Shown: positions 12,770 through 32,621, counted from the first letter of the stretch. The stretch: 64,000 bases of DNA from Nitrosopumilaceae archaeon (GCA_965208905.1 OZ242365.1:2112001-2176000), one strand, 5' to 3'. Notes: generated from the sequence alone by a model not told the origin. Translations and numbers: made by a program.

Positions 12770-13155
12770 GATCCCATCATACCCACCATCTTTGGTAGTT
12801 CGCGATACCCCTTGCTTACAAATACTCCATTATCTGCAGTAACCTGGACAAACTCCATACCGTTGTCAGGGGGCGGGGATAATATTATCTTCTTGCCTGG
12901 ACTCAAGGAGCCCAGCTCCAATACATCCCCTTCTCCAAAGTTTACGCGTACATTGGTTAGTGGCTGTGAACCTGTATTCTGTACTGTAATGCGGCCTGTG
13001 ATGAACAGGTTTTGCTTGTCTATAATTGGATCAACGAATATATCATAGTCCTGAGTCGATACTGTCATCTTTAACAAGTCTAAGCCAAATATTACTGCCA
13101 TAGCCCCAATAACTGCTATAACAGCCCCCACCATTACCGCATATTGGTTCAACAA
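12766..13155 (-). CDS. Membrane-anchored hypothetical protein (Ig-like/CARDB-like)
   Basis: N-terminal TM then beta-rich 'ITVQNTGSQPLTNVRV'; overlaps the purC start. Confidence 0.7.
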   Translation of the reverse strand: MLNQYAVMVGAVIAVIGAMAVIFGLDLLKMTVSTQDYDIFVDPIIDKQNLFITGRITVQNTGSQPLTNVRVNFGEGDVLELGSLSPGKKIILSPPPDNGMEFVQVTADNGVFVSKGYRELPKMVGMMGS

Positions 13156-13211
13156 TATAGTAAAGCGGTTCTTTACATTTATCTTTGTCCACTAAGACTG
13201 CCACCATATAA

Positions 13212-13367
13212 CTACTCAGATGTGTCCTGAGAACGGGCTTCTTCAAGGTAGGCGCGCCGCATTTCATTGATCATTTCGCGATCAACTTCGGGCTCGTCTT
13301 CTACAACCACTATTCCCATATCATCATAATCGTCGGGTAACTGCTTGGTGTTGTTTATGCTTTCCAA
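13212..13367 (-). CDS. Small acidic hypothetical protein (51 aa)
   Basis: Read by hand from TTG: MESINNTKQLPDDYDDMGIVVVEDEPEVDREMINEMRRAYLEEARSQDTSE*; below the ORF-track cutoff. Confidence 0.5.
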   Translation of the reverse strand: MESINNTKQLPDDYDDMGIVVVEDEPEVDREMINEMRRAYLEEARSQDTSE

Positions 13368-13413
13368 TTTTTATTCAAAAAATAATCGCCGTAATTAAGG
13401 GTTTTCTTTTTTA

Positions 13414-13464
13414 GGTTCTGGGAAATCAGTGGGACATGACGTATGGTGGGAAATTAGGGACATA
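13414..13464 (+). repeat. Left terminal inverted repeat
   Basis: GGTTCTGGGAAATCAGTGGGACATGACGTATGGTGGGAAATTAGGGACATA; contains two GGGAAAT..GGGACAT subrepeats. Confidence 0.9.
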
Positions 13465-13718
13465 GTTGGTGGTTGTTAAGTTAACGTGAGTCGGGGGGCT
13501 GGTAAGTTGGCGTGTGTTGGGTGAGGGTGGAAAGTACGTGTGTTGGGGATCTTCTCAAGAATGAAAAAGGAAGTAGATGGTTAGGCTCCGGCCCCGACCC
13601 ATAGCCTGGCTAGTTGCCAAAGAAGGGGCAAATCAGTCACCCACCTAAACTGTTTGTGGGTTTAAATTATTTGCAGGTAAATTCCTACCAATCAACAGGC
13701 ATTCACACATTACTATCT

Positions 13719-14453
13719 CTAGCTATTTTTGTGTCTTGGTGGTGATTCTACACCGTCAAGATTTCTGAACGTATCCAGTGGCGGTTTGGGTATTTTTTTT
13801 TCCGTACGCTTGTATTGTTTCTTTGAAACTTGATCAATGTACCCAAAATGTGACAACATGTCAATTATTGCATGTATTGGCTGCCTGTTTTCTACAATTT
13901 TCTTTCCTAAAACTGTCAACTCAGCCTTTGAAAATGCTTCACCTTTAAAATGAGAATCAATTCCTCTAATTGCTCTTGCCAATAATGATTCGGGGTTATG
14001 AAATGAACCCAAGTTGATAGCACGTCTTTTGATTCCATTGACACTAACATAACAAATGTAGATGCTTGTATCATAGATATTTTTATGATATGCATACTTG
14101 GCTTTTATTCCCTTTATCATTTTTTGACCATACGTTTCTTTAAAAGGCAGTCTTTCATAATTTGCCTTCAACGAGTCTTCATACGATGACGAGTCTACAA
14201 AGGATTTATCTGGATTAATAATCTGTTTAACATCTCTGATTAGATTCAGATTAAGAAAAATTTGTTCGCCATAGGAGGTAGGCTTTGCGATGATTAGATT
14301 TCTCTTAATTAATTCGTCTAGTGCTGATCTGCCTTGACCTCTATCACTTTTTGGAAACCCTTTGAGAGTGTTTTCTTTAGAGGTGTGTTTACCGCCAATA
14401 CATCTTAGATTGTACAATCGTTTAAGCACAGTTTTGTGATACTTGTTATACAT
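13719..14453 (-). CDS. Hypothetical basic protein, probably with winged-helix-like domains
   Basis: N-terminal 'IGGKHT...KGFPK...ALDELIKRNLI..KPTSYG' and C-terminal 'IIDMLSHFGYIDQV'; divergent from an HTH gene. Confidence 0.6.
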   Translation of the reverse strand: MYNKYHKTVLKRLYNLRCIGGKHTSKENTLKGFPKSDRGQGRSALDELIKRNLIIAKPTSYGEQIFLNLNLIRDVKQIINPDKSFVDSSSYEDSLKANYERLPFKETYGQKMIKGIKAKYAYHKNIYDTSIYICYVSVNGIKRRAINLGSFHNPESLLARAIRGIDSHFKGEAFSKAELTVLGKKIVENRQPIHAIIDMLSHFGYIDQVSKKQYKRTEKKIPKPPLDTFRNLDGVESPPRHKNS

Positions 14454-14586
14454 TTTAGCTATAATAGCACTTAGGTGTCAGTATTTATAAGCATTGTGCC
14501 ATAAAAGTCACAATATGTGTATCAAATTGTAGTACATGAGTTATTAAAACCCAACCTTTATGTGTAAGTATATGTCATAACATGTA

Positions 14587-14985
14587 ATGAATGAGCAGGT
14601 TATGGGATCCAAAGATGCAAGTACGTTAGAATGGCTAATTTCTGGTAATGCTAGTGCGAAGTTGCTGGATTTTTTCATAACATACAGAGATTTCGATTAC
14701 TCAGAAACAGACATTGCAGAATCTTCAAGAGTTTCTAAAAGAACCGTTTTTAGGGAACTGCCAAAATTCCAATCAGCAGGACTGATAAAATTCACAAGAA
14801 ACGTGGGACGTGCAAAAATGTTTAAGCTTGATCCAGAATCCGAGGCAGCAAAACTGTTAGAAAGGTTTGTTTTTGAAGTTGCAACAAGAAGAATAGATGG
14901 GGTTCTTGCTAAGGAAACAATGCAGGAACGTATTGATGTAGCCACAGAAAGAAGCCAAGAAACCCCATTAAGAAATAGCATGTAG
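14587..14985 (+). CDS. Winged-helix transcriptional regulator
   Basis: 'LLDFF..YRDFDYSETDIAESSRVSKRTV...L....GLIK.TRNVGRAKMFKL'. Confidence 0.8.
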   Translation: MNEQVMGSKDASTLEWLISGNASAKLLDFFITYRDFDYSETDIAESSRVSKRTVFRELPKFQSAGLIKFTRNVGRAKMFKLDPESEAAKLLERFVFEVATRRIDGVLAKETMQERIDVATERSQETPLRNSM

Positions 14986-15496
14986 GATCACTCATTTTCT
15001 ATAATCAACCACGGTATTAAAAAATTAGGAAAGCGGCTTCATCCAGCAGCCGTCCCTGCCGTTAGGCAGCCAGCTGAATCCGCTCAGTCTCAGGATGTCG
15101 TTTATCTCGCGCCATACCGGCTTGCCAATCCATCCCTTTGGCACCGTCCTGATGCAGTCGACCTCGTTTGAGATCGTGACCTTTTTGATCCTTTTTCACA
15201 GCCGGCGCGCAAAGTTGTCTTTTTGCGCACCCTGCGAGATCAGTTCCTTGATCTTGTCCCTTCCGAGGCCTAGCCTACATAGGTGGAAATATAGGTCAGG
15301 TCAGCATTTCTTCCCACTTCGGGTCAGCACTTTCCCTAGGTCAGCATTTCTCCCCAGTCCCCCCAGAGTGGAAATTGTGGTTGGTACCGCCGTTTCCACT
15401 CCGCAGCACGAAATTTTCGGACATACATTTTACTCCATGTATCTTTTTTGACAGCCGTGGACCATTACCGTTTTTTGATAGTCCACGGATCGCGGA

Positions 15497-15829
15497 ATGT
15501 TTAAGGATTGGTGGGTGGGATTCTACCTAATGCCGATAACGCCAGAGGAATGGGATAGTGGTCGGGTGGACGTTTCTACCACCATACGAACAAAAATCTT
15601 GAACTTCCTTGATGATGGGAACGCATACAGTTGTAAGGAGATTTTATGTGGACTAAACCCACAAGATGAATATATCTTGCACAGGGAATTTCCGGGGATG
15701 TTAAACAACATGGCCCATACACTACGTGTAATGGTCGACGACGGACAACTTGAGACCAAAAGCGTGATGTTGTCGAGGGGGCAGAACCAGAAAAATGTCG
15801 ACTACTATCGCAAACCAAAATCCACCTGA
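15497..15829 (+). CDS. Small winged-helix-like hypothetical protein
   Basis: 'KILNFLDDGNAYSCKEI...LRVMVDDGQLETK...YYR'; true start probably ATG 15530. Confidence 0.6.
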   Translation: MFKDWWVGFYLMPITPEEWDSGRVDVSTTIRTKILNFLDDGNAYSCKEILCGLNPQDEYILHREFPGMLNNMAHTLRVMVDDGQLETKSVMLSRGQNQKNVDYYRKPKST

Positions 15830-16028
15830 ACATCCCACACGGTTCGGCGCTTGTGCGTATGTGGTTGGTGGATAACACGTCCTTTGGACAAAAACCATAT
15901 CCGTCGCTTTCTACCATGATTCGTGTCCTCGGAACCTACTAGAACCACCGTGATTGGTTGGGAAGTTGTGTGAGTATGGCATCAACCGAAAAAGAGAGAT
16001 ATGATCCTTAACAGGTAACGTTTCTGCT

Positions 16029-17105
16029 CTAGCCGTGGTCATGGGGAGGTGTGAATGCCAGAGCACCGTTCTTTACAAACCCATAGGCAGCCTTCAGTGA
16101 GGCCCGTACCACATCAATGTTGTTCGGCTCGAACCACTGTTCCACCAACACGATCCCCTCACCGGCGGTCTTGATGGTCTGACCGTTGAAGTCTGTGGTT
16201 TTGATCTCGGCGTTGGATATGCGTGTTATGTCGGTCGCGGCTTCGGGCGAAACAGAGATTAGCGCCATCCCCTTCTTCAACCTGTTCTTGATTATGCCTA
16301 CTATCTCTGCATCTCTGTACGAGAACCCAATCACCAACAACACGTCAACCCTGTCAACCTCCTTCTTGAAACGCTCAAACAGTGAGTGAAACGGCTCATC
16401 ACCGTAGTTTTTCGAGCCTTCGGTGGGGGCGATAACAATATCTTTTTTGCCACCTCTCGGTGCAGGCACGCCGGCTTCCACAATCTGACCGTCAACATCC
16501 TCGTGCCAAAATATGGAGCCGTGTAGTTTTAACAGGCGCATGTAGTTGGTGGCATCGATTGACCACCTGTCTGCCCAAATGAAGATCCCGCGGCCACCCT
16601 CCACGAATCCATTGACAACGCTTAGATTTTTCTTGTAGCAGTACCTCTCCAGCACATTATCGTAGTTGGTCGTAAATACTAGAAATTCATCCGCACTACT
16701 GTCGTTCACAATAGCTCTGACCATATCGTACATCCATACAATCTGATTGTCAACAATCGATTTTATGACGAATGATTCAAACAGAACGTCGCTGATGATG
16801 GACTGAGTATGCCTCAATTCGTCAAGTGTCTGCTTGAACGTGTTGTCGCTACCATGCAGTACGTTAAAAATCGGCTTAATGTTGGGTGTATCGTTGGACA
16901 AGCGTAGCACCCTATCTATCCCATCGTACAATTTCTCGACATCTGAGTAGTCACCTTTGTCGATGATGGTTTTAGTGATTTGACTCATGCCACGCCCGCC
17001 CTTCTCATTGCTGACACGCGTCCGCACACTGTCCATCAACTCTACCGTGGTGGGCAGACCTGCAAACGCCGAGGCCCCGGCTCCGAGAAACAGGGCGGTC
17101 TTCAT
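16029..17105 (-). CDS. SIR2-like (SIR2_2) domain protein, candidate NADase defence effector
   Basis: 'FLGAGAS', 'FTTNYD', 'KLHGS', 'LLVIGFSYRD'; start at MKTALF (17105). Confidence 0.85.
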   Translation of the reverse strand: MKTALFLGAGASAFAGLPTTVELMDSVRTRVSNEKGGRGMSQITKTIIDKGDYSDVEKLYDGIDRVLRLSNDTPNIKPIFNVLHGSDNTFKQTLDELRHTQSIISDVLFESFVIKSIVDNQIVWMYDMVRAIVNDSSADEFLVFTTNYDNVLERYCYKKNLSVVNGFVEGGRGIFIWADRWSIDATNYMRLLKLHGSIFWHEDVDGQIVEAGVPAPRGGKKDIVIAPTEGSKNYGDEPFHSLFERFKKEVDRVDVLLVIGFSYRDAEIVGIIKNRLKKGMALISVSPEAATDITRISNAEIKTTDFNGQTIKTAGEGIVLVEQWFEPNNIDVVRASLKAAYGFVKNGALAFTPPHDHG

Positions 17106-17719
17106 GTACCATACGGGAGGAATGATGTCATAAATCCTTTTGCGGTCTGGGGGGCTGTAACATCTTAGAGGGATGAGGTACGTCTGGTGGGACTGTAACA
17201 AGAGGGGGATGGCCTCACACCAGGGCTGTAAAGTTGACGGGACATAAAGTCAGGGACATGGGATCTTCTCAAGAATAGCACGGGGGTTAAATCTGTGACC
17301 TGACGCACTTTCCCTTCCGAATTATTCAATACTGTGAAAAGGTAATTCTCTTGTGTCGTATTCATCAGCACCATGTCTTACTCCCCCAGAAGGAGACTTT
17401 ACGGGGAATGTATGCGCCCATTATGTGATAACTTTGCAATCCTCGGGGGGCTGTAAAGTTACTGTGTACTAGATGGCACTGTAAAGTTGTGTGCTGGGAT
17501 CAGATCTTCTCAAGGTTCCGGAAAGTTGCAGGAGTGTGGGCCAGAGTAGAAAGCAAGGGAGGTTCTGTGAAATTGGTGGGACGTGGGCTAGGGTGCTACG
17601 AAGCCCGTCACGAACCACGGTTCTGGGAAATCTGCGTGTGATGTGTAATCCTGTCAAAAACGTGTGATGAATCTTCAAGAACATGAGCCGGAGTGGAAAG
17701 ATGGGGCCGGAGTAGGGCG

Positions 17720-18643
17720 CTAACTTGGTGGCTTGGTTGGTTGGAAGTCTACCTTGAAGTCAGATTGCATTAGGCCAGCAGTCATCACCAGTTTGTTCGC
17801 GTATCGGATGATGTTAGACGGGCCAACATTGGTGAAGACATAAAGTTTCCCGATTTCTCGATAAGTACTAAACAACTTACCAGTGGGATGTTTTGGTTCT
17901 ACATGCAGTAGGTAGTTCCTTGGACCAATACGGATGGGACAATGCTGTGCGGTAAGGTGTCCGTTGTTAATCAACCACTCGGCCACACTACCCAACAGGT
18001 CCACCCATGACTCTAAGGCCTTTTGGCTACCATCTCTGTGTATGAGAATTTTGGGATGACTGGACCCCTTCTTGTAGGTGACATTTTCCAGCACAATCCC
18101 AGGCACATGCCTAATTGGTGGTCTTGTCTCCGGATGCAGCATCTCGTACATCTCATCGATCTTCTTAATTGGCGTGATCGTGTGTCGCGGCATGTTCCCC
18201 AACACAACGACCCGGTGCAGGCGTATGGCCTTAGATATCACCATCCCCTCTGAATCAGTGACATCAAACTCGGCCTCCGGACTCTTTGTTGTGGCGTTGG
18301 CATCATACATCCTCCATTTCCGCCCGTTTGTCAACACACCATATCTTACATTACGCCCCCTAACATAGTCAATTAGTTTATCCGTGTACTTGTCTAAATT
18401 CTCGTCCAACTTCTTGGCCTCGACAATCATGGCCTTGTGCCCAAGGGTGTAGTCAGTCTTGCCACCGGGACCGGTGTTGTCTTCCGGTACCACCTCACTG
18501 GGGTTGGACAAGTCCCAATCCAGTTCGCGCAACAATGGATCAATCAATGCATACCGGGTCATCGTTTCGTTCTTGGAGAGTGCTACCTCATGAACATTGA
18601 TTGTCTGCTGAATCTTCGCAATCACGTCAAGGAACTCCTGCAT
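17720..18643 (-). CDS. HsdR N-terminal-like PD-(D/E)xK nuclease domain protein with an uncharacterised C-terminal domain
   Basis: 'NETMTRYALIDPLL..LDWD', 'DYTL...IVEAKK', 'GVLTNGRKWRMYD'. Confidence 0.8.
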   Translation of the reverse strand: MQEFLDVIAKIQQTINVHEVALSKNETMTRYALIDPLLRELDWDLSNPSEVVPEDNTGPGGKTDYTLGHKAMIVEAKKLDENLDKYTDKLIDYVRGRNVRYGVLTNGRKWRMYDANATTKSPEAEFDVTDSEGMVISKAIRLHRVVVLGNMPRHTITPIKKIDEMYEMLHPETRPPIRHVPGIVLENVTYKKGSSHPKILIHRDGSQKALESWVDLLGSVAEWLINNGHLTAQHCPIRIGPRNYLLHVEPKHPTGKLFSTYREIGKLYVFTNVGPSNIIRYANKLVMTAGLMQSDFKVDFQPTKPPS

Positions 18644-19059
18644 GGTTCTATGCCTGCCGTACCTGCATATAAGCATGTAATTGTCTGGGGACTGCCACAT
18701 CTACGTCACCTAGGTAACACGCGTCACCTACGGATCTTCTCAAGATGGCTGTATGATCCTGCTGACCTAGCCGAGACTGTATAATTGCTGACCTAGAGTG
18801 GGAATGGGGGTTTTCGTACATCAGGTGTGTGGAGTGGAAATCTAGTGAGATGGAAATTGTACGTTTGGAATGAACATCCCCGACCCCATTGAAGCTAGTT
18901 CCTTAAATGGGATGAGTATGATAGAGTGGTATGGGAATATATTTCGCTGAGGAGGAACTGGTGGTGTCCTTAGAGTCTTACGAAAACCTACACTACTGAT
19001 GAAAACATCTACTCGTACTCAACATTTAGCAGATGAACAGTGCAGAAACACTTTCCCTG

Positions 19060-20691
19060 CTACCTCCAAACACTAACCATTCCAAACGCTTCATTTAGCA
19101 CTCTTTCAATCTCCAATTCATTGGCTTCGCCGCCAGAGCTACTTTCTTGGAGTTTCGACTCAACCAATTCGAGCACGATTTTAGTTTTGGTTTTTCCTAT
19201 AACACGGAAAAGCCCGTTATGATATTTGGTCCCGTAGGCATCCTCAATTGCTTTAATGAGTCCTTTTTTGGGTTGCTCTTGTTTTGCTATTTCATCATCA
19301 GATACGCTTTGTCCATACTTCTTTAGGTGAGAATTTATCAGATTGATTATAGACTCTCGCTCAAAATTGTCTCCTTCAAAGCTGGTGTTCCATATGTGGT
19401 GTTTAAATTCCCCGCCAAATCTCTGTTGTATTCGTCTAAGCTCGGTTTTCCAGTTCAACTCATCATCAGCAATCAAGTATATTGCAATCGAGTCTATGCG
19501 AGCAGATTGAATTATAAAATCAATGTTGTTGGCAATCATGTTGGTTACACCTTTTCTATTAACTATCCTCACAACGTCATCATCAAGACTGATCCCACGT
19601 TTTTTACAAATTTTTTTGATTACCGCCTCTTCCGTTTTACCCTCTACCAAGAGGTAAAGTCTGGTTGAAGTATCCTGTACAAAATACCGAACTATTGCCT
19701 GTTTGGTCTTGTGCGTCTTATAGTCGAATGGTTTCGAATACACGCGCTCTTTCCATTCGGCATTATCAAAGGGCATATTCGGAACACCGGTCTTCCCATC
19801 CAACTCGTGCAGAAACAACGCCAGCATCCGCGCAGCCGTGTAGTATAACTGCGCAGTGTAAGCATCCCCTTTTATTTTCTCTACGACTGATGGTCGCATA
19901 ATTCTGATCAGATCATACCATTCCATTAATGGATCAAGGAAACGTACCTGCGCGTCAAACCGATTAAGAGTACGACGAACTTGTTCTATTGGAACCCCGA
20001 TATCTTCCAAAAGATCGCTGACACTAAAACTGTTTCTCCACTCTAACCACATCTCTTGGAAGCGCTTGATGCCAACGGTAAGAGGGAACGGTATGGAATT
20101 GTAAACGTAAACTGAATAGCGTTCCTCCAATAGCATTAGCATTCCTATATCTTTGATTATATCTAGCTGCGATGAGTTAAACCAGTCGTCTCTCAACATG
20201 TTAGTCTCAACATTGTTCATCACTTGTTTAAGGTCTGATTTAGTGTATGAATCAAAGTATAAAAAGCGAACTTCTTTGAAATGAAATATGTTCTTGACTT
20301 GAAGGATTTGGAATTTGTGATAAAAGAGCAGTTTTTTGTCGCGTTTTAAGCTTTTGGGCTCGGACTTGAAATTACTCCACGGTTCAAAGTCTCCGACCTG
20401 TGGAAGCTCTATATGCCCAGCTGCATAGAATTCCTGGATGGCATCAAGTCCATAATACAGATCTCCACGCCGCTGCTGTTCGGGCAAAACCAGCCGGAAA
20501 GCCGGCTGGAGCCACCCTTCACGTTCAAAGCTTTCCAAATCTTCTTCTCTAATTCTGATCCCATGTTTCTCTAGCAAACGGACGAATCCATGTGGTTGTT
20601 CAAAGTCGCCATGCATGTATGGCCGCATCATTTTTTTCCGGATGTACGGCGAGAGTCCAGCATCCATGTCATGGAGAAGCGTATGAGGCAA
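19060..20691 (-). CDS. Hypothetical protein with a C-terminal OLD-like TOPRIM domain
   Basis: 'LLVEGKTEE', 'VNRKG', 'IADDE', 'SFE'; the N-terminal ~340 aa are unassigned. Confidence 0.65.
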   Translation of the reverse strand: MPHTLLHDMDAGLSPYIRKKMMRPYMHGDFEQPHGFVRLLEKHGIRIREEDLESFEREGWLQPAFRLVLPEQQRRGDLYYGLDAIQEFYAAGHIELPQVGDFEPWSNFKSEPKSLKRDKKLLFYHKFQILQVKNIFHFKEVRFLYFDSYTKSDLKQVMNNVETNMLRDDWFNSSQLDIIKDIGMLMLLEERYSVYVYNSIPFPLTVGIKRFQEMWLEWRNSFSVSDLLEDIGVPIEQVRRTLNRFDAQVRFLDPLMEWYDLIRIMRPSVVEKIKGDAYTAQLYYTAARMLALFLHELDGKTGVPNMPFDNAEWKERVYSKPFDYKTHKTKQAIVRYFVQDTSTRLYLLVEGKTEEAVIKKICKKRGISLDDDVVRIVNRKGVTNMIANNIDFIIQSARIDSIAIYLIADDELNWKTELRRIQQRFGGEFKHHIWNTSFEGDNFERESIINLINSHLKKYGQSVSDDEIAKQEQPKKGLIKAIEDAYGTKYHNGLFRVIGKTKTKIVLELVESKLQESSSGGEANELEIERVLNEAFGMVSVWR

Positions 20692-21062
20692 ATATTTGCT
20701 TCGGACATTGCAGTATCCGAAGATATGATCTGTGGTTGGGAATCATATGTGTGCATAATACTAACCAAAAAGAATGGAAAAACCCTAGCGGATGAAAGCC
20801 CCCGGCCCAATATAGTCAAGAACATGTATCCTGACTTGAAGTTCTGTTTACTTTAATTTAATTTATGCAGTATGTCATCTGGGGGCTTTCACTACAGATG
20901 TATAATTTCTACTCCACACACCTAAACTCTGAGTTATAATTTTCCCAAACTTGTTTAGGTCAGCGTTTCTTCCCTACATGAGAAGGGTGGTGCATGGATA
21001 CGTGGGCGAGAGTGCTGTACGGTAGTGATTGAGTTATAAGAATCTGGTGGTGGGAAATAACC

Positions 21063-21567
21063 ATGTCTGACACCGATTGGCTACCCATCATCTTGGAGGC
21101 TTCTGCTATAGCTGGTGGGCTGATATTCTACGTAAAAAACTGGCAGGCGCGTGATCGCCTGCGGAAGGTACGCTATGCCAACATGTTGATGAATGAATTG
21201 AAAGCAGTATGGGATGCCATCAAGCGTAGAGACCAATGACTACCACGAAGAGTTCTTGGAGCCTTTACCGGATAACGTCTATGATGGGTTCGTCTCATCC
21301 ACCAACCTCTCATACTTCGACAAGGATCTCCAAGAGCACTTACATGATCTGTACATGAACCTCAAGAATTACAACGAGGACGTTTTTCCCGATGAGAATA
21401 CACGTGCGAGCAAGGGTATGGCAATAGACCCGATGGGTTTGTTTGATGACCTATCAGATTCGGTTGAGGAGGCCATCGCCTTGGTCAATGAGTTCCGCCG
21501 GCGCAACAGATCTGCCAAACGCTGGCGCCCACTCCTGAAAGCCATTCATTGGTACTATGATGACTAG
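21063..21567 (+). pseudogene. Frameshifted membrane-anchored hypothetical protein
   Basis: ATG 21063 MSDTDWLPIILEASAIAGGLIFY... stops at 21239; a protein-like sequence continues in the overlapping frame (21214-21567). Confidence 0.5.
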
Positions 21568-21687
21568 TGGATCTATTCTCAAGATCCGCCATGTACCCCA
21601 TGCAACACCATCAGTCATATACCGAAGATGCAACAGTTCCTTCAGTCTAGGCACGTAATACCCACACTAAACAAAAAATAAAAAAAC

Positions 21688-22020
21688 TTACTTTCTCTTA
21701 GCCTTTGTAGCTGCCTCTATGAGGGCCTTCCACTTGTTTGTACCCTCGATATGTACACCTGCCGCCTCCGCGGGCGTCTGACCATTCGGCAACCCCTGAT
21801 GCTGCCGCACATAGTTATGATATGTCTTCAAGCCACTTACTATGGGTGAGTCCTCGCGTTTGAGACCGCGCGTTGCCTCCTCGCGATACCCGAGCGTATT
21901 ACCATTGAATGACTCCATCTAGTTGTTGTGGTGTATGCCATCAAATGCAACATCCTTGATGTGTTCGGTATCCTTATGTGTAAAGTTCTTTGATTCATAC
22001 TGGGTGCCTTGACCATATCT
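21688..22020 (-). pseudogene. 3' fragment of a second IS6-family transposase
   Basis: 'QYESKNFTHKDTEHIKDVAFDGIHHNN*MESFNG...GLKREDS...TPAEAAG' closely matches the C-terminus of 33558-34679; has an in-frame stop. Confidence 0.85.
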
Positions 22021-22521
22021 TTTTTTAACCGTAAAATTTTGCTTATCATAGGCGGGATCTCGATAGCCGTCACGGCAGTCGTGGCGACAGAGGTGTACGA
22101 CTACGTGTACTTTGAGGTGCCCATCAAGAACGCCGTACCTTCGGAGGGGTACGCGCATGTCGATCTTGTGCCGGTGGCCCAGACGGTTCATCCGTACACG
22201 ATCGAGGACATCACGCATGATCCCATAAACGATGCCATAACGGTCACCTTCAAGGGAGGCACTCACCCCGTTACGCGGGAGCGCGTGGTTTTTGAGTATG
22301 TTGAGACGTATTCCGTAAACGAGTCGTTTGCTTTCAGATGTGACGAATCAGAGGGCGGATCGTACTTGGTGTTTTACGGGTATCTGAGAGTGGAGAGAAA
22401 GAACGGCACGGACTACATGCGCCTTTTACACTACGACGGGACCACACATGGACCGATGCCGTGCATCTATCCTGACGTGATAATCCACTCAAGGGTATCA
22501 ATCCCCCCAGCAGAGCCTTGA
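22009..22521 (+). CDS. Membrane-anchored hypothetical protein
   Basis: N-terminal hydrophobic helix, 170 aa. Confidence 0.55.
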   Translation: MTISFFNRKILLIIGGISIAVTAVVATEVYDYVYFEVPIKNAVPSEGYAHVDLVPVAQTVHPYTIEDITHDPINDAITVTFKGGTHPVTRERVVFEYVETYSVNESFAFRCDESEGGSYLVFYGYLRVERKNGTDYMRLLHYDGTTHGPMPCIYPDVIIHSRVSIPPAEP

Positions 22522-23016
22522 CCGGTACATAATCGATCTCTTTGATGACCTACGGCGACCCGAGCGCCGGACAAACACTTCATTGGGGTGGACGGCGTGT
22601 AGTGTGTGTGGACGGAGAACTACGAGCAGTACACCACGACGCGCAGGCCGGTCCGTCCGGCTGGCTGTGTAGATGATGTGGCCTCATGCCAGAATAGTCA
22701 GATCTGTTACGTTTAAGGCGCTATGTGGCTTTGGGCTGTAGGTGGTAACACAGTGGGCCCGGCACCCTCGACAACGAACATAATTATGAATCATGTCCTA
22801 CTTCAATGGAATGGGATATTTCGCGCGGCTCTGAAATTCGAGGTACGCGTACGAGATTGTGAAAGAGGGTACATATGTACGGGTTTGTGATTGCGGTGTG
22901 TACTTGACATATTCGAAACCTATATCTGCATTAGTCAAGAAAATGAGGATGGGAGACCTCGAGCACTAAAAGTTATCAAATGTTTATATTTAACAAAAAC
23001 ACGTCACGATAGCATA

Positions 23017-23664
23017 ATGGATCAGTTACATAAAACACTAATCATTGGTTTGATTTCAGTAATACTAATTGCTAATTTAATTTTACTTACAATAAACACC
23101 GAATATTCTTCTAATGCTATAACATGGTCTGCAGTAATAGTTTCAGTGTCAGCTGGCATAATTGTAACATCAATAGTAGATAAGCGTGCATCAGATGCGC
23201 ATAACGAAGTATTACGATCACAAAACAAAATTGCAAAAATTTTAAAGCAGTTAGATGAAACAGACCAAAAACACAATAAAGTGCTAACACATTTAAAGCA
23301 AAGTAAGCTTAGAAACGAAAATTTGGCTAAAAACTCAATAACTGCATCATTAAAGTATATACAATTAATGCTGAATCGTCTAGAATTATCACTAAATAAA
23401 CCAACATTAGAGAAAAAGGAAATGGATCTTATTATCAACGTATTAAGTCATTTAGAATCGCCACTAAATTTAATCGAGCAATCTGTTCCTCAAAGTGGTG
23501 CGGAGTTTAAAAAATATGAGGCAGATATAGAAAATGTGGTAGCTGTATTACGAAAACTAATAATTGCATCAATTGTTGTATCTGATTCAAAGGTCGCTGA
23601 AGTTTTTGAATTAATAAGACATAGTAACAGGAAATTAGAAATATTGCTTAAACAAGTAAGTTAA
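23017..23664 (+). CDS. Two-TM coiled-coil hypothetical protein
   Basis: Two N-terminal TM helices then a helical/coiled-coil region; AT-rich; convergent with the ASCH gene; start taken at ATG 23017. Confidence 0.65.
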   Translation: MDQLHKTLIIGLISVILIANLILLTINTEYSSNAITWSAVIVSVSAGIIVTSIVDKRASDAHNEVLRSQNKIAKILKQLDETDQKHNKVLTHLKQSKLRNENLAKNSITASLKYIQLMLNRLELSLNKPTLEKKEMDLIINVLSHLESPLNLIEQSVPQSGAEFKKYEADIENVVAVLRKLIIASIVVSDSKVAEVFELIRHSNRKLEILLKQVS

Positions 23665-24047
23665 ATATAAGTAGTAATTTTACCTTTTGTATGATGATCA
23701 AGCAATAGAACATTTCTTACCCAAATTCGAGCACCATTAGGATGTAAATATTTTTTTGGTACTCTAAATCTTTCACTAATGCTAATTTCCCAAACATATA
23801 ATATTAAAGAATCATCTAATTCATCTAAACTTACTCTGTGCAAATGAATATTATCTTTTAGCTTTTTCTGATTAATGGGTCCATGCGATGATTGAATTTT
23901 AATTTTACCTAAGATGTTGCCTTTACTAAGAAGATATATTTCAAAGCCAATTTTAGATTTTGGCGCTGGTCTACTACGTAATTCCCACGATTTTTGACCA
24001 TTAATGATAAGATTAGCGTATGGTTGATTTATAATCAGTCCATCCAT
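23661..24047 (-). CDS. ASCH domain protein
   Basis: 'LIINQPYANLIINGQKSWELRS' is the ASCH signature (GxKxxExR). Confidence 0.88.
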   Translation of the reverse strand: MDGLIINQPYANLIINGQKSWELRSRPAPKSKIGFEIYLLSKGNILGKIKIQSSHGPINQKKLKDNIHLHRVSLDELDDSLILYVWEISISERFRVPKKYLHPNGARIWVRNVLLLDHHTKGKITTYI

Positions 24048-24049
24048 GG

Positions 24050-25297
24050 TTAAGGTACTCCATAATTATTGATCCGCTTTTCTAATTGACTGTATTGTCT
24101 TTGTAATATGCTATCATCAATTATTTCTAAATTACATTTGGCAAGTTGAGCTAATGGTGATTTGCCGCCATTAATTTCTAGACACTTTTTTAGGCCAATA
24201 TACATATCCACGGCATGATTTCTTATAACATGGTGCTTTTTTATTAAATTGGCGCAATTATCTCGGTCTAAGAACGTTGGTGCAAGATCAGGATGAATTA
24301 GATATTTCCAAAATTCAACACAATCAATAAGGATTCTAAATGAATTTTTTCTTACGGACTTAAGTTTATTCACTGAGAGTGCCATCACATTATCATTGTA
24401 AGTACGTTCCAGATTCTCACCTTGATTTATTGTATAAAGTGAAAGAATTCGAACAAAACATGCCATGCATAACCCACACATTTTTGAAATTCCTTGTGAG
24501 GTGGAACAGGACCATGTGTGCTTGATTGATTCAGGCTTATTTGCAGCGAGAATAACTTCGGATTTTGTATAGTTAAAAAATGGTGTTTGAATTTCTATTT
24601 TTTGCCCAAAAATGTTTTCAAAAATTTTTGCCCAGCCCGTAATCATGGCCGGGTCTGTTGTTCGTGTAGGCGCAACTCGCATAGATACAGGGTAATTTAT
24701 CATAAATGGGCCATTTTCCGGTATCACAACCTGCCCAATATTGTATTCCGAGGCTAAGCATAACAATGTAGTTAGAAAAACAACTCCTCGCACATGTAAA
24801 AGTGGGATGTCTGTCGCACTCTTTAGCCTTAAATTTGTTTCAACCATCTTGTGATTATTAGGCAAACATTTTTTATGAACATCCCTAGCAACTTTTTGCA
24901 TACGTGAGCTTGTTATCGTATGACTAAGCAGCCCTCTTTTTGTTATATTATTTGGCAGTAGTGGATATGACAAGCTATCTAGACCGCCCGAAAATAAACT
25001 AACAAAATCAAAAGAACTTTCAAATAGTCGCTGTTGTCTATTAGTTTTAGCCATCTTTAAAAATTTGAGTTTTATTTCTCTATCCGTAATTGTTTCATAA
25101 AAAAATTGAAGCTCATCTAAATTCTTTTGAAAGCGTTCGGGTTCTGATACTGGAACCACGACTTTCACAAAATTAGATTGTTTTGACTCTGCATAGTGAA
25201 CACACATGGCTAATTTTTGAAAATCGAGAAGCTCATCAGCAATTAAAAGTTTTATGTGTTTAGGTCTTAGTGAATTTTTTGGATTTTGATTTTTCAT
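24050..25297 (-). CDS. QueC-family PP-loop protein, QatC-like
   Basis: 'SLFSGGLDS', 'PENGPFMINYP....PTRTTDP', 'TPF..YTKSE', Zn site 'TWSC...CGLCMAC..R'; N-terminal extension 'VVVPVSEPERF' resembles QatC rather than housekeeping QueC. Confidence 0.85.
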   Translation of the reverse strand: MKNQNPKNSLRPKHIKLLIADELLDFQKLAMCVHYAESKQSNFVKVVVPVSEPERFQKNLDELQFFYETITDREIKLKFLKMAKTNRQQRLFESSFDFVSLFSGGLDSLSYPLLPNNITKRGLLSHTITSSRMQKVARDVHKKCLPNNHKMVETNLRLKSATDIPLLHVRGVVFLTTLLCLASEYNIGQVVIPENGPFMINYPVSMRVAPTRTTDPAMITGWAKIFENIFGQKIEIQTPFFNYTKSEVILAANKPESIKHTWSCSTSQGISKMCGLCMACFVRILSLYTINQGENLERTYNDNVMALSVNKLKSVRKNSFRILIDCVEFWKYLIHPDLAPTFLDRDNCANLIKKHHVIRNHAVDMYIGLKKCLEINGGKSPLAQLAKCNLEIIDDSILQRQYSQLEKRINNYGVP

Positions 25298-25587
25298 TTT
25301 TCTAAATCTGATTTAATATCTGTTAATAAGTCATCTCCAAAATTTTCAGGTTCTAATTTAAGGCGGGCATCTAACTCTTCAATACTGTATTTTTTAATTT
25401 TGTTTACTATTTTACGTGCCAGCTTTTCTGCATCCTTTTCTGCATCTGCTAATAACCTATTACGTTTTATCTGAGTTTTAGGGTTTTCAGTATCGTTAAA
25501 TAATTCTTCTGTTATTTCTTTAGTTGGTTGATAAATAGCGCGTTTGTATAATTTAAAAAAATATTGTTGTTGTTCTTCTGTGAGCAC
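25294..25587 (-). CDS. Small helical hypothetical protein in the QueC operon
   Basis: 97 aa; GTG start overlaps the upstream TAG and its stop overlaps the QueC ATG (ATGA). Confidence 0.65.
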   Translation of the reverse strand: MLTEEQQQYFFKLYKRAIYQPTKEITEELFNDTENPKTQIKRNRLLADAEKDAEKLARKIVNKIKKYSIEELDARLKLEPENFGDDLLTDIKSDLEK

Positions 25588-25934
25588 TAATTTTCACTCC
25601 TTTCAATTAATGTATCATAAATTGCTTGTCGAATAGAATCTTTTTTTGGTAGTGTGAGATTTTGTTTAATATTTTTTGGGATTTTTGTAACAGCATCACC
25701 AGAAGCTTTCTTTATAATTTCTTCAGACTGAGCTTTTGTTTTATACGCAGCTATTCCAGCAGACAATATGCCGACAAGATAATTCGAGTCTTTGCTTTGT
25801 GCTGCTTTTGAGATTATAGCTGCGGCTTGTTTGTAATCTCCTTTATTTATACAATTATCAAGATCGGGTTGAATTTTTCTGACTTGAATTTTTGTATTTC
25901 GTTTTGCACCTTTTCTGCTTGGTTGAGTTCCCAC
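25587..25934 (-). CDS. Small basic protein with an N-terminal MGT motif (QatB-like N-terminus)
   Basis: GTG start, MGTQPSRKG...; first gene of the coupled four-gene operon. Confidence 0.6.
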   Translation of the reverse strand: MGTQPSRKGAKRNTKIQVRKIQPDLDNCINKGDYKQAAAIISKAAQSKDSNYLVGILSAGIAAYKTKAQSEEIIKKASGDAVTKIPKNIKQNLTLPKKDSIRQAIYDTLIERSEN

Positions 25935-26120
25935 AATTTTTAGCTTTTATATTCTGTTATAAAGATATCGATAGCCTAAATGGGGCGGACTCCCCCAGAA
26001 TGAGACCAAGCAGAATCGAATGAATCTAAATAAGCTTGACTCTGCCTGTTTAGTGTGCGGCTTCGACCAACCCCCAACATTCGACAGGTGAATGTTCTGG
26101 ATAATCCCCTGTATGATTTA

Positions 26121-26921
26121 TCACCGTCGTTTTAAACGAGCTGGATGCCTGTACTCACGTTTGATTTCGCCGTTGCTTGCCAGACGGCTTTCAATTATCT
26201 CGCAATATCTGGGTTGTATCTCGCAGGTCAGGTAGTTCCTGCCCAAGTTCTTGGCTTGAACCACTTCCGAGCCGCTACCGCCAAATAGTACGAACACCGT
26301 ATCGCCCGGAACAGTGCAAGATTTGATGAGCAGCTCTGAGAGTGTCTCTGGTATCTGGCACGGGTGGTTTGTCTTTTGGCGAGACACGTTCTTAACCAAG
26401 TTTAAATTTATCCAAGAATAGAGCATGCGTCTCAGATGTCCCTGCCTTATTCGCTCCTTAATGCGCACATCATCCGGGTTCTGATATGGCTGTGCCACCT
26501 GTTCTTTGTAAAAGCGGTTGTTCCTAGATTTGGTGGCGTGGAGGATAGAGCGGTGGGCGGTGTTGAACCGGCGCCTGGAGTGGCCCACGTTGGTGTTATA
26601 GATCCAAACATAGTCGTGCACTGAGTAGACGTTCTCGTCAAGATAACTTACGCACAGATACGCGTTTTGCTTGGGATAGTTGATGAAAAACAGGTTACCG
26701 TCAGGCTGCAAGACGCGCAGGCACTCTTGCGCCAAATCCACGTACCATTTCACGTACTCATCCCAAGAAGACGTAAAGGCAGTTCCCTGATATTTGATGC
26801 CAACGTTGTAGTCTGGATCGCCATATATCATATCAATGGAATCATCCGGCAATCTCCTTAGCGTCGCCATTACGTCCTCGTTGACGACGCGGTTGCGGTA
26901 TTTTTTAGGTAGTGTGGTCAT
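26121..26921 (-). CDS. DNA N4-C/N6-A methyltransferase (beta class)
   Basis: Catalytic motif IV variant 'DPDY' precedes 'HPCQIP' and motif I 'LFGGSGS'. Confidence 0.88.
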   Translation of the reverse strand: MTTLPKKYRNRVVNEDVMATLRRLPDDSIDMIYGDPDYNVGIKYQGTAFTSSWDEYVKWYVDLAQECLRVLQPDGNLFFINYPKQNAYLCVSYLDENVYSVHDYVWIYNTNVGHSRRRFNTAHRSILHATKSRNNRFYKEQVAQPYQNPDDVRIKERIRQGHLRRMLYSWINLNLVKNVSRQKTNHPCQIPETLSELLIKSCTVPGDTVFVLFGGSGSEVVQAKNLGRNYLTCEIQPRYCEIIESRLASNGEIKREYRHPARLKRR

Positions 26922-26923
26922 CG

Positions 26924-27697
26924 CTACACCAGCACGTACTCGGCATTACGCCTGAGCACTATAGAACCGGGATCATGAGGGTCTTTGAACGTGTACAGAT
27001 ACAGACGTATCTTATTGCCGTGGCGCAGCAGGTAGCAGCACTCTATTGAATCGGCTTGCAGGTTATCTATCTTGTCTGCATAGTACCGATACGGGTGAAA
27101 AAGTTGAAAAACGTTAAAGTCGTGCGGTTCGCCGTTTTTTGCCTCGAATATGATTATCTGGCCTTGGAATTCCGTGGTGAGGTCAATCTCAAGTTGCAGT
27201 TTATTGCATTGAATGGTATCACCGCCTATGCTATAGTCAAACGTGGCAAACGTTCGGTGAGCGCCATAGACTTTCGGTGATGCGGTTATGTCCCTGTACA
27301 GGAAATCATGTATGATGCGCTGGTTGTATCCCACCGACAGGATGTTGCTCTCGCTGGTGTTCGTGTTGTCCAGTATTCCCGGCCGGTGGTACCACTGGAA
27401 CCTGTCATTGGCCGATACGGCTTCAAACTTATGGTAGCCGATATCAATGCCACGCACAAACTTGTGCATGCCGCGCCCCAAATGCACTACAAATACGTCG
27501 TCTGCTACCAACACATCGGGCAGCCTTGTCGTGCTGTCCAACTTGGTAACGTCATACTGATTGCTAAACTCAACTTTAGTGGACACGGCCTTGACATCTT
27601 TGTTGCTAAAAACAAAGTCACGCTTGGACTTGCACGCATCGTACAGCTTGGCAACCACCACGCCTTTTCTGCCTATGCGCTGTTGTACCATTGTCAA
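26924..27697 (-). CDS. Putative type II restriction endonuclease
   Basis: PD-(D/E)xK motif 'QLEID......IFEAKN'; directly upstream of the MTase. Confidence 0.75.
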   Translation of the reverse strand: MTMVQQRIGRKGVVVAKLYDACKSKRDFVFSNKDVKAVSTKVEFSNQYDVTKLDSTTRLPDVLVADDVFVVHLGRGMHKFVRGIDIGYHKFEAVSANDRFQWYHRPGILDNTNTSESNILSVGYNQRIIHDFLYRDITASPKVYGAHRTFATFDYSIGGDTIQCNKLQLEIDLTTEFQGQIIIFEAKNGEPHDFNVFQLFHPYRYYADKIDNLQADSIECCYLLRHGNKIRLYLYTFKDPHDPGSIVLRRNAEYVLV

Positions 27698-27967
27698 TGC
27701 TGCTCCGTTACGTGCCAGATATGCGTAGGACGGTAGGTATGGCTCAACCGCATGCGAACTCGCATCTGTTACTGATTTTTATGTCATGCGTTCACCGGTT
27801 CTGGTAACAAATCGAGACATGGGGATTCTCCGAACCCGCTGTTAACTTTCGGGACATGAGGCTGGACGGCGCCTCGGCGGATCTTCTCCAAATTGGCCCC
27901 GCTGGATGCTGTTAACTTTCGGGACATGGCCAGATCGCAGGCCCCAACCATCGGGACAACGTGACGC

Positions 27968-28318
27968 TCAGTACAAGGCCGCCGTCTTCTCCATCCATGC
28001 CCGGATGGACTTCACGCTCTCGCCTCTGCCCACGTACTTGCCGTCCAGCAGGTCGGCCCCCTCGTGGACGTAGCTGCCCACCTTGTCCACCACGAAGTGC
28101 ACCGCCTCACCCTCCGGACCGGCCGTACGCCAGACGCTCACGCTGCACGGGGCCGCCGACGCCGCATGCTCGGCCGCCTTGCCGTAACCGTCGGGCGTCT
28201 TGAGGAACTGTAAAGAACTCGTGACCTGGCGTATAGTGTAAAGCGCGTGACCTAAGGAGGCCAGAGATATGGTTATATAAACAAAATCAAGTATGTTAGA
28301 AAACATATCTAAAACCAA
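27968..28318 (-). CDS. Small hypothetical protein; start uncertain
   Basis: GC-rich 3' part with protein-like sequence 'VHFVVDKVGSYVHEGADLLDGKY'. Confidence 0.35.
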   Translation of the reverse strand: MVLDMFSNILDFVYITISLASLGHALYTIRQVTSSLQFLKTPDGYGKAAEHAASAAPCSVSVWRTAGPEGEAVHFVVDKVGSYVHEGADLLDGKYVGRGESVKSIRAWMEKTAALY

Positions 28319-28387
28319 CCAACTTTAAAAAGAACAATAGTCAACAATCGATATGGTTGACTTCCGGGCAGGTGTCGTGACTTAGTA

Positions 28388-31300
28388 TTGGATGCCGACA
28401 GTTTTGGCAAAACACTTCAACACCTTCGTACCATTTGTAATGATGAGGGTAACACCAAGGGCAGCCTCTTCGAGAAGTTGGTGCGGTCGTTTCTAAAGAC
28501 TGATAATCTGTACGCCGACAGGTTTGTTGAAGTATACGCGTGGAAGGACTACCCGGGACGTAACGGGCGGGGTGACTTTGGCGTTGATTTGGTCGGTGTT
28601 GAGCAGGATGGCCAACTCTGTGCGATACAATGCAAGTTCTTTGACAAGACAACCCTCACCAAACGCAGCATAGACAGTTTCTTGGAGGCTGGTTCGCGCT
28701 CGGAGTTTGACTCCATGATGCTGGTGTATGTGGGTGGTGGCTATGGCAAAAACGTACAGGATGCGTTGGAGGGTCATGGGTGTAAGGTGTTGAACTTCGA
28801 GTCACTGTCCGAGAGTAACGTGGAGTGGCCTGATTTGGCCGCTGGCCTGACTGACATCAAGCCTAGAAAGGCACGCCCGTTGTGGGACCACCAGAAGGAG
28901 GCGATGAGTAATGTTATATCCAAACTGGAAAACAACAACCGTGGACAGTTGATAATGGCGTGTGGGACGGGTAAGACATTAACATCTTTACGGCTGGCCG
29001 AAAAAACAGTGGGTGAGGGCGGTCTTGTGTTGTATGCAGTACCATCCATATCACTAATGCGACAGGTGATACGTAACTGGGCCGGGGACCGAACCCTACA
29101 GCATGGATATGTGGGTGTTTGCTCCGACAACACGGTGTCCCGTGGCCAGACCGACATACCAATCATAGAGATGGAGATTGGTGTGAGTACAGATGAGGAT
29201 CGTATAGCCTCGGTGATGCGCCGGGACTCCTCTAAAATGACCGTTATATTCACAACATACCAGAGTATGGAGGTTATTGAGAAGGCCCAGAAGTTGTCCG
29301 GGGAACCATTCGACTTGGTATTATGTGATGAGGCTCACCGTACCACCGGCGTAGAGAAGGGGTCGGCATTCACTATCATACATGACGATGAGAAGATACA
29401 GGCGCGCAAACGAATCTACATGACAGCCACACCAAAAATATACAAGCGCGCGGTCAAGACAAAAGCCGCCAATGAGGATGTGGTATTATATTCTATGGAT
29501 GATGATTCGGTCGAGTCCAGGAGTGTATTTGGACCGGTAATGTTTAGACTGAGTTTCTCAGATGCCATAGACGCGAAACTACTGACCGACTATGATGTGT
29601 TGACGTTGGGTGTCTCTGAGGAATATGGTGGTAAGATACTACAAAAGATTGTGGAAACGACTGGTGATGATGGCGATATTAACCTGACGGACGCGGCCCG
29701 TATGGCTGGATTGTACCGCGTGTTGGAGCGGCCAGACCCAGACAATGACGTGTTGCCACTCCAAACCGCCATAGCGTATACCAACCGTATATCTGACTCA
29801 AAGCGGTTCGCCAACAGTTTCAAGAATCTTATGATGGAGCCTGCCGGTAGTGTAGAGTTTGCTTGTGATGCCGAACATGTAGACAGTACACAAAACTCCA
29901 CCGCACGGGATAAGGCGATGCAGTGGCTACGAGATTCTGACCAGGACTCCAATGAATGTCGTGTGGTGTCTAACGCCAAATGTTTGTCTGAGGGTGTGGA
30001 CGTACCGGCACTAAGTGCGATCACGTTCTTAAACCCCAAGTCGTCCGAGATCGACATAATACAGGCCATCGGTAGGGTGATGCGGAAGCATAAAGGTAAG
30101 GAGCGCGGTTATGTGATTATACCGTTGGGGATACCACCGGACACCGAGCCTGAGAAAATACTGAATAATGAAAAGTCATTTGGTGTGGTGTGGAATGTGT
30201 TGAGGGCGTTGCGGTCACATGATTCACGGCTGGACGTAGAGGTTAATACAGCAGATTTGAAGAAACAGTTGCCTAAACGCATAAAGTTCATTGGGATAGA
30301 TAGAGAGGGAAAACGCGTCGACAATGAGGAGGGAGGAAAATCATTCTCATTGGGTGAATTGGATGTGCCAGCCGATGCATTATATTCTCGTATAGTGGAG
30401 GAGGTAGGCGACAGGCAATATCTGGCGCGGTGGGCGAACGATGTCGCAGCCGTGGTGTCCCGTATACAAGAGCGTATTGGGGTAGTGGTTGCGGACGGTC
30501 CTGCGCGAGACAAATTCGGTGCGTACATGGTGGGTCTGCGCGATATAATACACGATACAATATCAGAGTCCGAGGGTATTGGGATGCTTGCCCAACACAT
30601 GGTGACCAGACGGATATTCGGTGCTATGTTTGGGACAGATAACTTTGCGCAATCCAATCCAGTGTCGGCTGCGCTCGACGCGGTACTGAATGAGTTGCGT
30701 GCGCATGGTCTGGATACTGAGCTACGTGATTTGGAAAAGTTCTACAACTCCATAGAGTTGCGTGTCGCTGGGTTGGACTCACATGATGCCCGGCAGCGCG
30801 TTATATCTGAACTATACGGGACATTCTTCAAGAAGGCATTTTCCAAGATGGCTGACCGACTGGGGATAGTGTATACACCAACTGAAGTAGTAGATTTCAT
30901 ACTGCGGTCAGTTGACCATGTGCTGCGGGAGAACTTTGGAAGGGGACTGACCGACGAAGGGGTGAATGTGATAGACCCATTCACAGGTGCCGGTACGTTC
31001 ATTGCGCGTATGATGTCCAAGGATTTGGACTTGATACGGGATGAGGATATTGAGCGAAAGTATGAATACGAGATATTCGCCAACGAGATTGTTTTACTGG
31101 CGTATTATATCGCGGCGGTCAACTGCGAGTCCATGTATGGCCAGCGTACCGGGTCTTTCAAGCAGTTCGAGGGACTGTCATTTACGGATACGTTCAGCCC
31201 TGGTAACTTGGATGAGCACACCGGTGACGTGATGGCCGGGCCCAAGAAACGCATCAGGAGGCAGCGGGAGGCGAAGATTACGTGTATAGTGGGCAATCCA

Positions 31301-32515: not shown

Positions 32516-32621
32516 TCGTACCGGACAAGATCAAAGGCGAGTTCTCGGTATTCATAACGGATATGACACCGGACTTGGAGGTGGTTCACCACGGCCAAGT
32601 ATTCCCGATGAAGGTGATGAC

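Follow-up and report, generated by a model that had tools for sequence, protein, structure and literature searches.

The 64,000-nucleotide stretch analyzed here, called the window below, covers positions 2112001-2176000 of the 2,214,775-base genome of a Nitrosopumilaceae archaeon (GCA_965208905.1, OZ242365.1; G000 in genome comparisons). It contains an IS6-like transposon of 21,329 bp (13414-34742) that carries defense genes, separated in many places by short modules resembling the ends of the transposon itself. A first-pass annotation, made from the sequence alone, had noticed such modules between 13470 and 27960 and read them as ends of related IS6 elements left by repeated capture, in an island that may have grown like an integron array. 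The element encloses all of the modules listed there, and its right limit lies beyond that range. The island is an accreted mosaic of related IS6-like ends and cargo, and its spacers are, on balance, probably relic termini of sister elements in an archaeal family of IS6-like cargo transposons. The stacked ends, their shared plan and a conserved core are the new part of this finding.

The 50-bp inverted ends of the element agree at 48 of 50 positions, and an identical 8-bp duplication, CTTTTTTA, lies outside both of them. These matched ends and flanks indicate that 13414-34742 was inserted as a single unit. The left flank was present within ~1.5 kb in none of the nine tRNA-Asn loci of the genus, so that no empty site was found and the duplication is the sole ground for unit insertion.

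The only intact transposase of the element, a 373-residue protein, combines two N-terminal zinc-binding motifs, a helix-turn-helix (HTH) and a DDE domain. Its best NCBIfam match is transpos_IS6, aligned over the full model (1-202 of 202) at 93.1 bits, which is below the curated cutoff of 125; with Pfam DDE_Tnp_IS240 it scores 54.2 bits and exceeds the cutoff of 27. Like IS6 members, the element has an 8-bp target-site duplication on both sides and terminal repeats beginning with GG (GGTTCTG at both ends), though the repeat, at 50 bp, is longer than the 14 bp given in PMC7986276. It is not a compact single open reading frame (ORF) element of ~0.7-1.8 kb, since some 20 ORFs lie within its 21,329 bp. 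The dead second IS6 transposase that had been placed at 21688-22020 is present at 21691-22002 on the minus strand, reduced to its last 104 residues with one in-frame stop; it is 79% identical to a paralog at genome position 1257341. A sensitive tblastn search of the island revealed no other transposase remnant beside the modules. The 47-residue zinc-ribbon ORF divergent from the intact transposase gene is kept beside the transposase of the related genome G005 (77% nucleotide identity) and beside a paralog at genome 158-160 kb, and may encode an accessory or regulatory partner of the transposon family.

Elsewhere in the genome are 12 full-length transposase paralogs, 53-89% identical to the 373-residue protein. 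Family members C, G and H, which have the same end type, measure 3.4-3.7 kb; the present element, with at least five defense modules aboard, is three to six times larger than its sisters. The C element is intact (3,360 bp), with perfect 50-bp ends and the duplication GAATTTTT, and the C, G, I and J types each have an intact cognate transposase. Perfect 8-bp duplications accompany seven of the 18 end pairs checked in the genome, and these seven are A+T-rich (43 of 56 bases, or 77%, by hand count). Recombination between family copies is common: elements E and F are two copies with exchanged flanks, and the flanks of six 171-bp derivatives are swapped or inverted. Eight such derivatives, each a 30-bp left tip joined to the 141-bp right end of a B-type element, are scattered over genome positions 347829-1928482. 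Perfect 8-bp duplications flank two of them. For the remaining six, the flanks have their partners at other copies, several of them in reverse-complement form, a pattern that inversions or replicative intramolecular events would produce; the rearranged flanks are also indirect evidence for the replicative cointegrate formation of the IS6 family.

The features of the island are collected in Table 1. Block GC across it ranges from 32% to 56%, a mosaic make-up, and the plasmid collection gave no megablast match to window positions 12000-30000. The conserved start of the SIR2 protein (MKTALFLGAGAS) lies downstream of the listed TTG start. The Type ISP gene is interrupted at the end of its 1375-residue first ORF by an (AGACTCC)n tract of ~105 bp (32409-32513). 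The second ORF (32622-33281) holds the remainder of the specificity domain, the PADLOC profile being matched over positions 6-1400 and then 1428-1637 of 1646. Because a change in repeat copy number would shift the frame, the gene is, judging by its sequence, a candidate phase-variable restriction enzyme.

Table 1. Features of the 21.3-kb element and its surroundings in the window (aa, amino acids; E, profile E value)
Feature	Position	Strand	Remarks
Left target-site duplication	13406-13413		CTTTTTTA
Left terminal inverted repeat, A type	13414-13463	+	tip GGTTCTG, two GGGACAT-type subrepeats
Partial G-type end	13468-13492	+	altered tip and first subrepeat only
M1	13493-13563	+	tip, two GTGTTGG-type subrepeats; core 13548-13560; E 4.5e-13
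Cargo ORF, 244 aa	13719-14453	-	no family match
HTH ORF	14587-14985	+	divergent from and adjoining the 244-aa ORF
I-type end, opposite-facing	15283-15361	-	tip 15361; three subrepeats
SIR2 defense gene	16029-17201	-	
M2' (GGGGATG type)	17150-17212	+	without core
M2 (GGGACAT type)	17223-17277	+	core 17262-17274; E 2.2e-10
M3 (GTGTGCT type)	17445-17515	+	core 17503-17515; E 1.1e-11
M3b (decayed GGGACAT type)	17514-17614	+	three subrepeats
M4 (GTGTGAT type)	17619-17681	+	degenerate core 17669-17681; E 4.9e-10
Cargo gene, restriction-enzyme N-terminal domain (HSDR_N)	17720-18700	-	
Composite end M5 (CGTCACC) + M5b (GCTGACC) + tail	18687-18870	+	core 18733-18745
OLD/GajA-like TOPRIM defense gene	19060-20691	-	
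Opposite-facing end	21571-21640	-	tip 21640; core-like palindrome 21571-21589; weak, E 4.0
Dead transposase remnant	21691-22002	-	
Low-GC (32%) cargo block	22891-25934		257-aa ORF (+); ASCH, QatC/QueC-like and two small ORFs (-)
Type II restriction-modification pair	26121-27697	-	methylase and DUF6997 nuclease
M7 (GGGACAT type, loose)	27797-27960	+	core-like site 27880-27892; weak, E 5.8
M8 (GTGACCT type)	28204-28257	+	E 2.1e-7
Type ISP/IIG restriction-modification gene	28388-33281	+	two ORFs, split at 7-nt tandem repeat
Zinc-ribbon ORF, 47 aa	33330-33473	-	
Intact transposase, 373 aa	33558-34679	+	just inside right end
Right terminal inverted repeat, A type	34693-34742	-	
Right target-site duplication	34743-34750		identical to left copy
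TFIIB gene	53271-54038		archaeal window

Positions 15038-15259 of the island, in a supposed spacer, have counterparts at 73-75% identity in G012 and G027, which belong to two other genera, and may be an unrecognised small gene or RNA. The 603 bp at 21998-22600, which include an unannotated 170-residue ORF, are 97% identical to a contig of G008, far more than the 74-92% of other shared pieces; this level of identity suggests a recent exchange within the genus. Outside the island, the window holds a TnpB/Cas12f-like gene (37953-39305), an IS630-type DDE_3 gene (42816-43823), an rve integrase-type gene (51569-52747) and a DDE_Tnp_1 gene (56297-57397).

End modules and their common plan

Alignment of 11 modules, five from the island and six from elsewhere, yielded a common plan and a search profile. 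A tip, GGNNCTG, is followed by two subrepeats of ~17 nt, mostly 26-28 bp apart, each of which has a generic A+T-rich portion and closes with a heptamer. Both subrepeats of a module have the same heptamer, and modules differ from one another in it (GGGACAT, GTGTGAT, CGTCACC, GTGACCT, GTGTTGG, GGTGGAT and others among those aligned). Every site that the first-pass annotation had described as a tip with short direct subrepeats is present: the subrepeat pairs 13511/13537, 13419/13447, 17451/17479 and 18760/18786 were recovered by a repeat search, and those at 17223-17260, 18700-18731 and 27838/27908 were read directly from the sequence. In most modules the subrepeats are followed, ~50-65 nt from the tip, by a component that had been overlooked, the core GATCTTCTCAAGA. 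It is near-palindromic, with GGATCTT CTC AAGATCC as its fullest form.

The core occurs five times in the window with up to two mismatches, always on the plus strand and within the element, compared to 1.10 expected; none of 100 shuffles reached five. At the same threshold the genome holds 78 matches, of which four are exact, three of them inside the island. No core was found without tip and subrepeats, and it is also present at true termini. Restriction of the core to right ends was considered and rejected, as left ends contain it too.

Exact copies of the 14-nt tip GGTTCTGGGAAATC exist in the window only at 13414(+), 17619(+) and 34729(-), so that the reported identity of 17619-17632 with the start of the left terminal inverted repeat holds exactly. 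With up to three mismatches there are 12 matches in the window (shuffle mean 4.84), a number that none of 100 shuffles reached. The site listed at 17561(+) is indeed a near-tip, with two mismatches, but is improbable as an independent end: it lies within M3b, a module conserved in a related genome.

The profile returned 95 genome sites at E≤10 and 44 at E≤0.01, whereas three shuffled genomes gave 4-6 and none, respectively. Twelve sites, seven of them outside the training set, fall within the element (1% of the genome), and the remaining 42.7 kb of the window contributes a single weak match; the motifs are therefore not equally frequent outside the island, one of the two outcomes that had been named as counting against the proposal. 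Fifteen of the 37 strong matches outside the island lie within 10 kb of a transposase homologue. Because the profile is blind to I-type ends, which have up to six direct subrepeats, these counts are lower bounds. The profile was used in place of a strict scan for tip and exact subrepeats, which missed the true left end and gave merely 3-fold enrichment. Individual subrepeats are short, and might as such be put down to chance similarity or low-complexity sequence; the shuffle controls for tip, core and profile, together with the BLAST matches to real ends described below, refute that explanation, to which we assign next to no probability.

Each transposase paralog whose ends could be located has its own heptamer, and the proteins differ most in their N-terminal halves. 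C is 67-76% identical to A in this half and 90% in the DDE domain; the corresponding values for I and A are 42-58% and 80%. Transposases A and B, with a common heptamer, are 94% identical in residues 96-190. We infer from these alignments that this N-terminal region (residues 96-190) probably reads the heptamer.

Counterparts at real termini and in related genomes

Modules of the island match the ends of elements found elsewhere, in agreement with the initial proposal. In the composite M5 unit, 18688-18799 is 88% identical to the left end, at genome 1264786, of a 7.6-kb element (1257-1264 kb), and the unit 18687-18870 is 87% identical over ~160 bp to G008 (C24:572-721), where the terminus lies 7 bp after a tRNA-Leu gene. 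In both cases the homology begins at the tip. M4 matches the end at genome 1275539 and C-type ends, its second subrepeat being the same as that of the intact C element, and M8 matches genome 1937816. Positions 13474-13492 of the partial G-type end agree at 19 of 19 positions with the right end of a G-type element at genome 1130912, and a sister's right end at genome 1100770 shows 98% identity with the 83-bp I-type end whose tip lies at 15361. The counterpart of M2' in G005 (92% identical) is a terminal end that abuts chromosomal flank. In G006, sequence matching the M1 core and the next 62 bp is found ~130 bp away from sequence that matches the C-terminal portion of a transposase gene, which identifies M1 as a right-end type. 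The end with its tip at 21640 is ~50 bp from the stop codon of the dead transposase.

The island as a whole is absent from all 40 other genomes searched, and scattered pieces of it occur in nine of nine genomes of the same genus. G005 has a different island at the same site, beginning within 1-2 bp of the same point. It contains a 12.1-kb element of another subfamily, with the duplication CTTTTTCG, and a single base pair separates this insertion from the tip of an older end of M2' type. The two islands have only module units in common, not cargo. The M2'+M2 unit is 83% and the M3+M3b unit 85% identical between them, both inverted. Homology of the latter begins at the M3 tip and ends 5 bp before the M4 tip; behind it stand a TATA-like stretch and a gene in G005, and M4 in G000. 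Homology between genomes thus breaks off at module tips or within a few bases of them.

Homologues of the restriction-modification pair in G006 and G001 (74% identical) are similar over 26125-27694 only and have no detectable module within 1.5 kb, which speaks against cassettes. In G005, the homologue of the Type ISP gene (76-79%) lies between ends belonging to other types and has no transposase.

The T-rich 8-mer at the insertion point, next to the conserved left flank (window 13406-13413; L033 4509-4516 and 16609-16616) holds different elements, in opposite orientation, in G000 and G005. Together with the divergence of G008 at the same point, its occupation in both genomes marks this position, on the tRNA-Asn side, as a hot spot of insertion. 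Sites adjoining ends are used more than once: at genome 1937809/1937817 and again in G005, two tips are separated by 8 bp.

Probable relic ends, alternative readings and proposed assembly of the island

Comparison of the same units in two genomes reveals decay. The GGGACAT-like heptamers of M3b are kept in G005 and lost in G000, those of M2 are kept in G000 and lost in G005, and the four M2' copies differ throughout. The inner tips have no partner end and no matching 8-bp flank. Decay of heptamers and unpaired inner tips favor the interpretation that these ends are drifting passengers: the modules are mostly decaying sister ends, and they record how a mobile defense island was assembled.

The arrangement of the modules bears on whether some of them still work. 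Six are stacked within 540 bp (17150-17690) with no gene between, and the genome has comparable stacks at four other loci, with ends facing one way at distances of 62-134 bp. Most modules face the same way as the left terminal inverted repeat, as first noted; the exceptions are the two whose tips lie at 15361 and 21640. One could imagine a telescopic transposon, in which inner modules are working alternative ends able to pair with the right end, several sister transposases can mobilize the same cargo through stacked ends of differing specificity, and the element extends outward when a new left end is recruited; end skipping in ISEcp1-type capture offers a parallel for such growth. Four tip-rightward modules carry the A-type heptamer, the GGGACAT modules M2, M3b and M7 among the ends that could pair with the right end. 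Only ends facing as the left end could do so, which would explain the orientation bias. Moreover, no pair matches better than the outermost, which has the duplication; units combining two specificities are found again in other genomes and at other loci; and the cognate transposases of four types are intact. Against the model stand the reciprocal loss of heptamers in M3b and M2 and the loose structure of M7 (subrepeats 70 bp apart), and no shortened version of the element with an inner module as its end was seen in the genome. Eight non-cognate modules have this orientation as well, which the model does not require. We regard it as unlikely. Also unlikely, in our opinion, is that the ends form a modular address system, in which tip and core are common to all and an exchangeable heptamer is read by the fast-evolving zinc-finger/HTH half of each subfamily's transposase, and stacks are kept to let several sister transposases move one defense block.

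Selection of another kind might be read from what lies behind some ends. In the left ends of the E element and of G005, a TATA-like stretch and the first cargo gene follow directly behind the repeat; a TATA-like stretch likewise lies between M8 and the Type ISP gene; and three minus-strand genes begin within 0-100 bp of a module tip. IS6 members are described as creating hybrid promoters in the sections of the IS6 review cited here (PMC7986276), which also speaks for regulatory scars, that is, ends retained as promoters, terminators or insulators, with the palindromic core as operator or hairpin. SIR2, however, has a TATA-like stretch of its own between tip and start, the core always accompanies tip and subrepeats and is found at true termini, and the six stacked modules serve no gene. 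Retention of the ends for regulation is improbable in our estimation.

The comparison with an integron array fares worse. The island resembles one in having a short conserved site between unrelated genes. If the modules belonged to cassettes, each gene would come with its own module, and a recombinase or transposase would act at the core; the core is near-palindromic and conserved across subfamilies, and the syntenic islands of G000 and G005 share modules and not cargo. Yet modules do not accompany genes one by one: six are stacked at 17150-17690, and the profile search found none in the five-gene block at 22891-26000. Homologues of the restriction-modification pair do without a module, the core does not occur apart from tip and subrepeats, and the sites are transposon termini, which in the island's interior are unpaired and decayed. 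No recombinase family was recognized among the scanned ORFs, and no integrase family, such as the tyrosine integrase with attI of an integron, among the 54 ORFs scanned. Growth in the manner of an integron is thus very improbable, and this part of the first-pass proposal is not sustained; repeated capture is one possible route to the modules.

For the relic termini that we prefer, the following course of events would account for the island. Each family member has long ends composed of the tip, two putative transposase-binding subrepeats and often the core, and sister elements would repeatedly have landed in or beside one another's ends. Later deletions would have taken away redundant transposases and partner ends, leaving solo or stacked ends between defense-gene blocks of different sources. 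The present 21.3-kb mosaic is one transposon; it would last have moved by its outermost matched ends and its single intact transposase alone, and its inner ends would now be mostly drifting passengers.

Several observations sit poorly with this account. The M3 subrepeats are nearly unchanged between G000 and G005 while four of eight spacer positions differ. In both SIR2 paralogs (70% identical), ~50 nt separate the conserved start from a module upstream of it, which hints at a retained role, and the 83-92% conservation of some composite units between genomes may be due to selection or co-mobility. At six of six tight junctions the inner tip begins 0-34 nt past the last subrepeat of the outer module (hand count), a spacing that random deletion would not yield. 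Nested insertion predicts opposite-facing partner ends, and only two exist; the orientation bias is 13:2 by module but weakens to 8:2 by independent unit, with linked modules merged (p~0.11, binomial sum), and calls for caution. Finally, A+T makes up 48% of the eight bases outside each of 12 inner tips (46 of 96 by hand count), in contrast to 77% in true duplications.

The data establish the end plan, the correspondence with real termini, insertion as a unit, the mosaic composition and the decay; both the order of events and the process that packed the ends tightly in one direction are matters that we infer. Ordinary insertion into A+T-rich targets is a doubtful source of tight stacks, the inner junctions not being A+T-rich. 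Our leading guess would be an IS6-type end-anchored deletion, or insertion directed at resident ends. End-anchored deletions running leftward would always leave the left portion of the neighbor, a same-facing end; this would explain the direction of the stacks, not how closely they are spaced. Direction and spacing alike would follow from a reaction directed at resident ends.

Relation to other mobile elements and to archaeal defense

Among the nearest counterparts are IS6/IS26 insertion sequences and the IS26 arrays described as pseudo-compound transposons and translocatable units. The ends of IS26 and IS257 begin with GG..CTG. The family described here has such tips as well, together with a DDE transposase resembling the IS240/IS6 type and an 8-bp target duplication, and its cargo is likewise interspersed with family sequences in direct orientation. 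The parts of the IS6 review drawn on here (PMC7986276) mention a zinc-finger IS6 clade with longer transposases, ends of 14 bp, a single ISfinder IS6 member with a passenger gene, and compound structures in which the IS copies are without exception direct repeats; resistance regions built by IS26, as portrayed in the portions used of three articles (PMC4196232, PMC7885326 and PMC7986276), have cargo interspersed with directly oriented IS copies. Here, by contrast, cargo lies inside a single element and not between whole IS copies, bare ends rather than IS copies separate it, and the ends are at least 50 bp long with two subrepeats. The stacked ends come from different subfamilies, whereas the targeted reaction of IS26, according to the part of PMC7885326 consulted, needs identity at the reacting end. 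A limited search of the literature on ammonia-oxidizing archaea of sponges found nothing relevant on this family, a candidate paper dealing with other IS families; this is no proof that the family is unpublished.

In other respects the family recalls larger transposons and islands. Several transposase-binding repeats are present in each end of Tn7 and Mu, as direct subrepeats are in each end here (six at most, in the I type); unlike those systems, the family has a single-protein, IS6-like transposase, and no TnsB or MuA family match was found. Integrative and conjugative elements and Tn7-like islands accrete in tandem at a reused attachment site. Their counterpart here is the same 8-bp T-rich site holding different elements in G000 and G005, the placement of the 12.1-kb G005 element 1 bp from an older end, and the two cases of tips 8 bp apart. 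Here, however, targeting is by a DDE transposase that loosely prefers A+T-rich sites, and the tight same-direction stacks are not tandem whole elements.

Together, these observations extend what IS6 elements are known for. They are familiar as small insertion sequences that flank resistance genes; the archaeal branch described here carries its cargo inside single elements of up to 21 kb. Among that cargo are SIR2, GajA-like and QatC-like genes together with two restriction-modification systems; the relic ends interspersed with them record how the island was assembled. With at least eight natural pairings of transposase and ends on one scaffold, the way in which a DDE transposase reads its ends becomes directly testable. 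If the ends did act as an address system, they would amount to a DDE-driven network exchanging cargo between archaeal defense islands. More generally, the island suggests that the defense islands of ammonia-oxidizing archaea are built and shuffled by transposons, not integrases.

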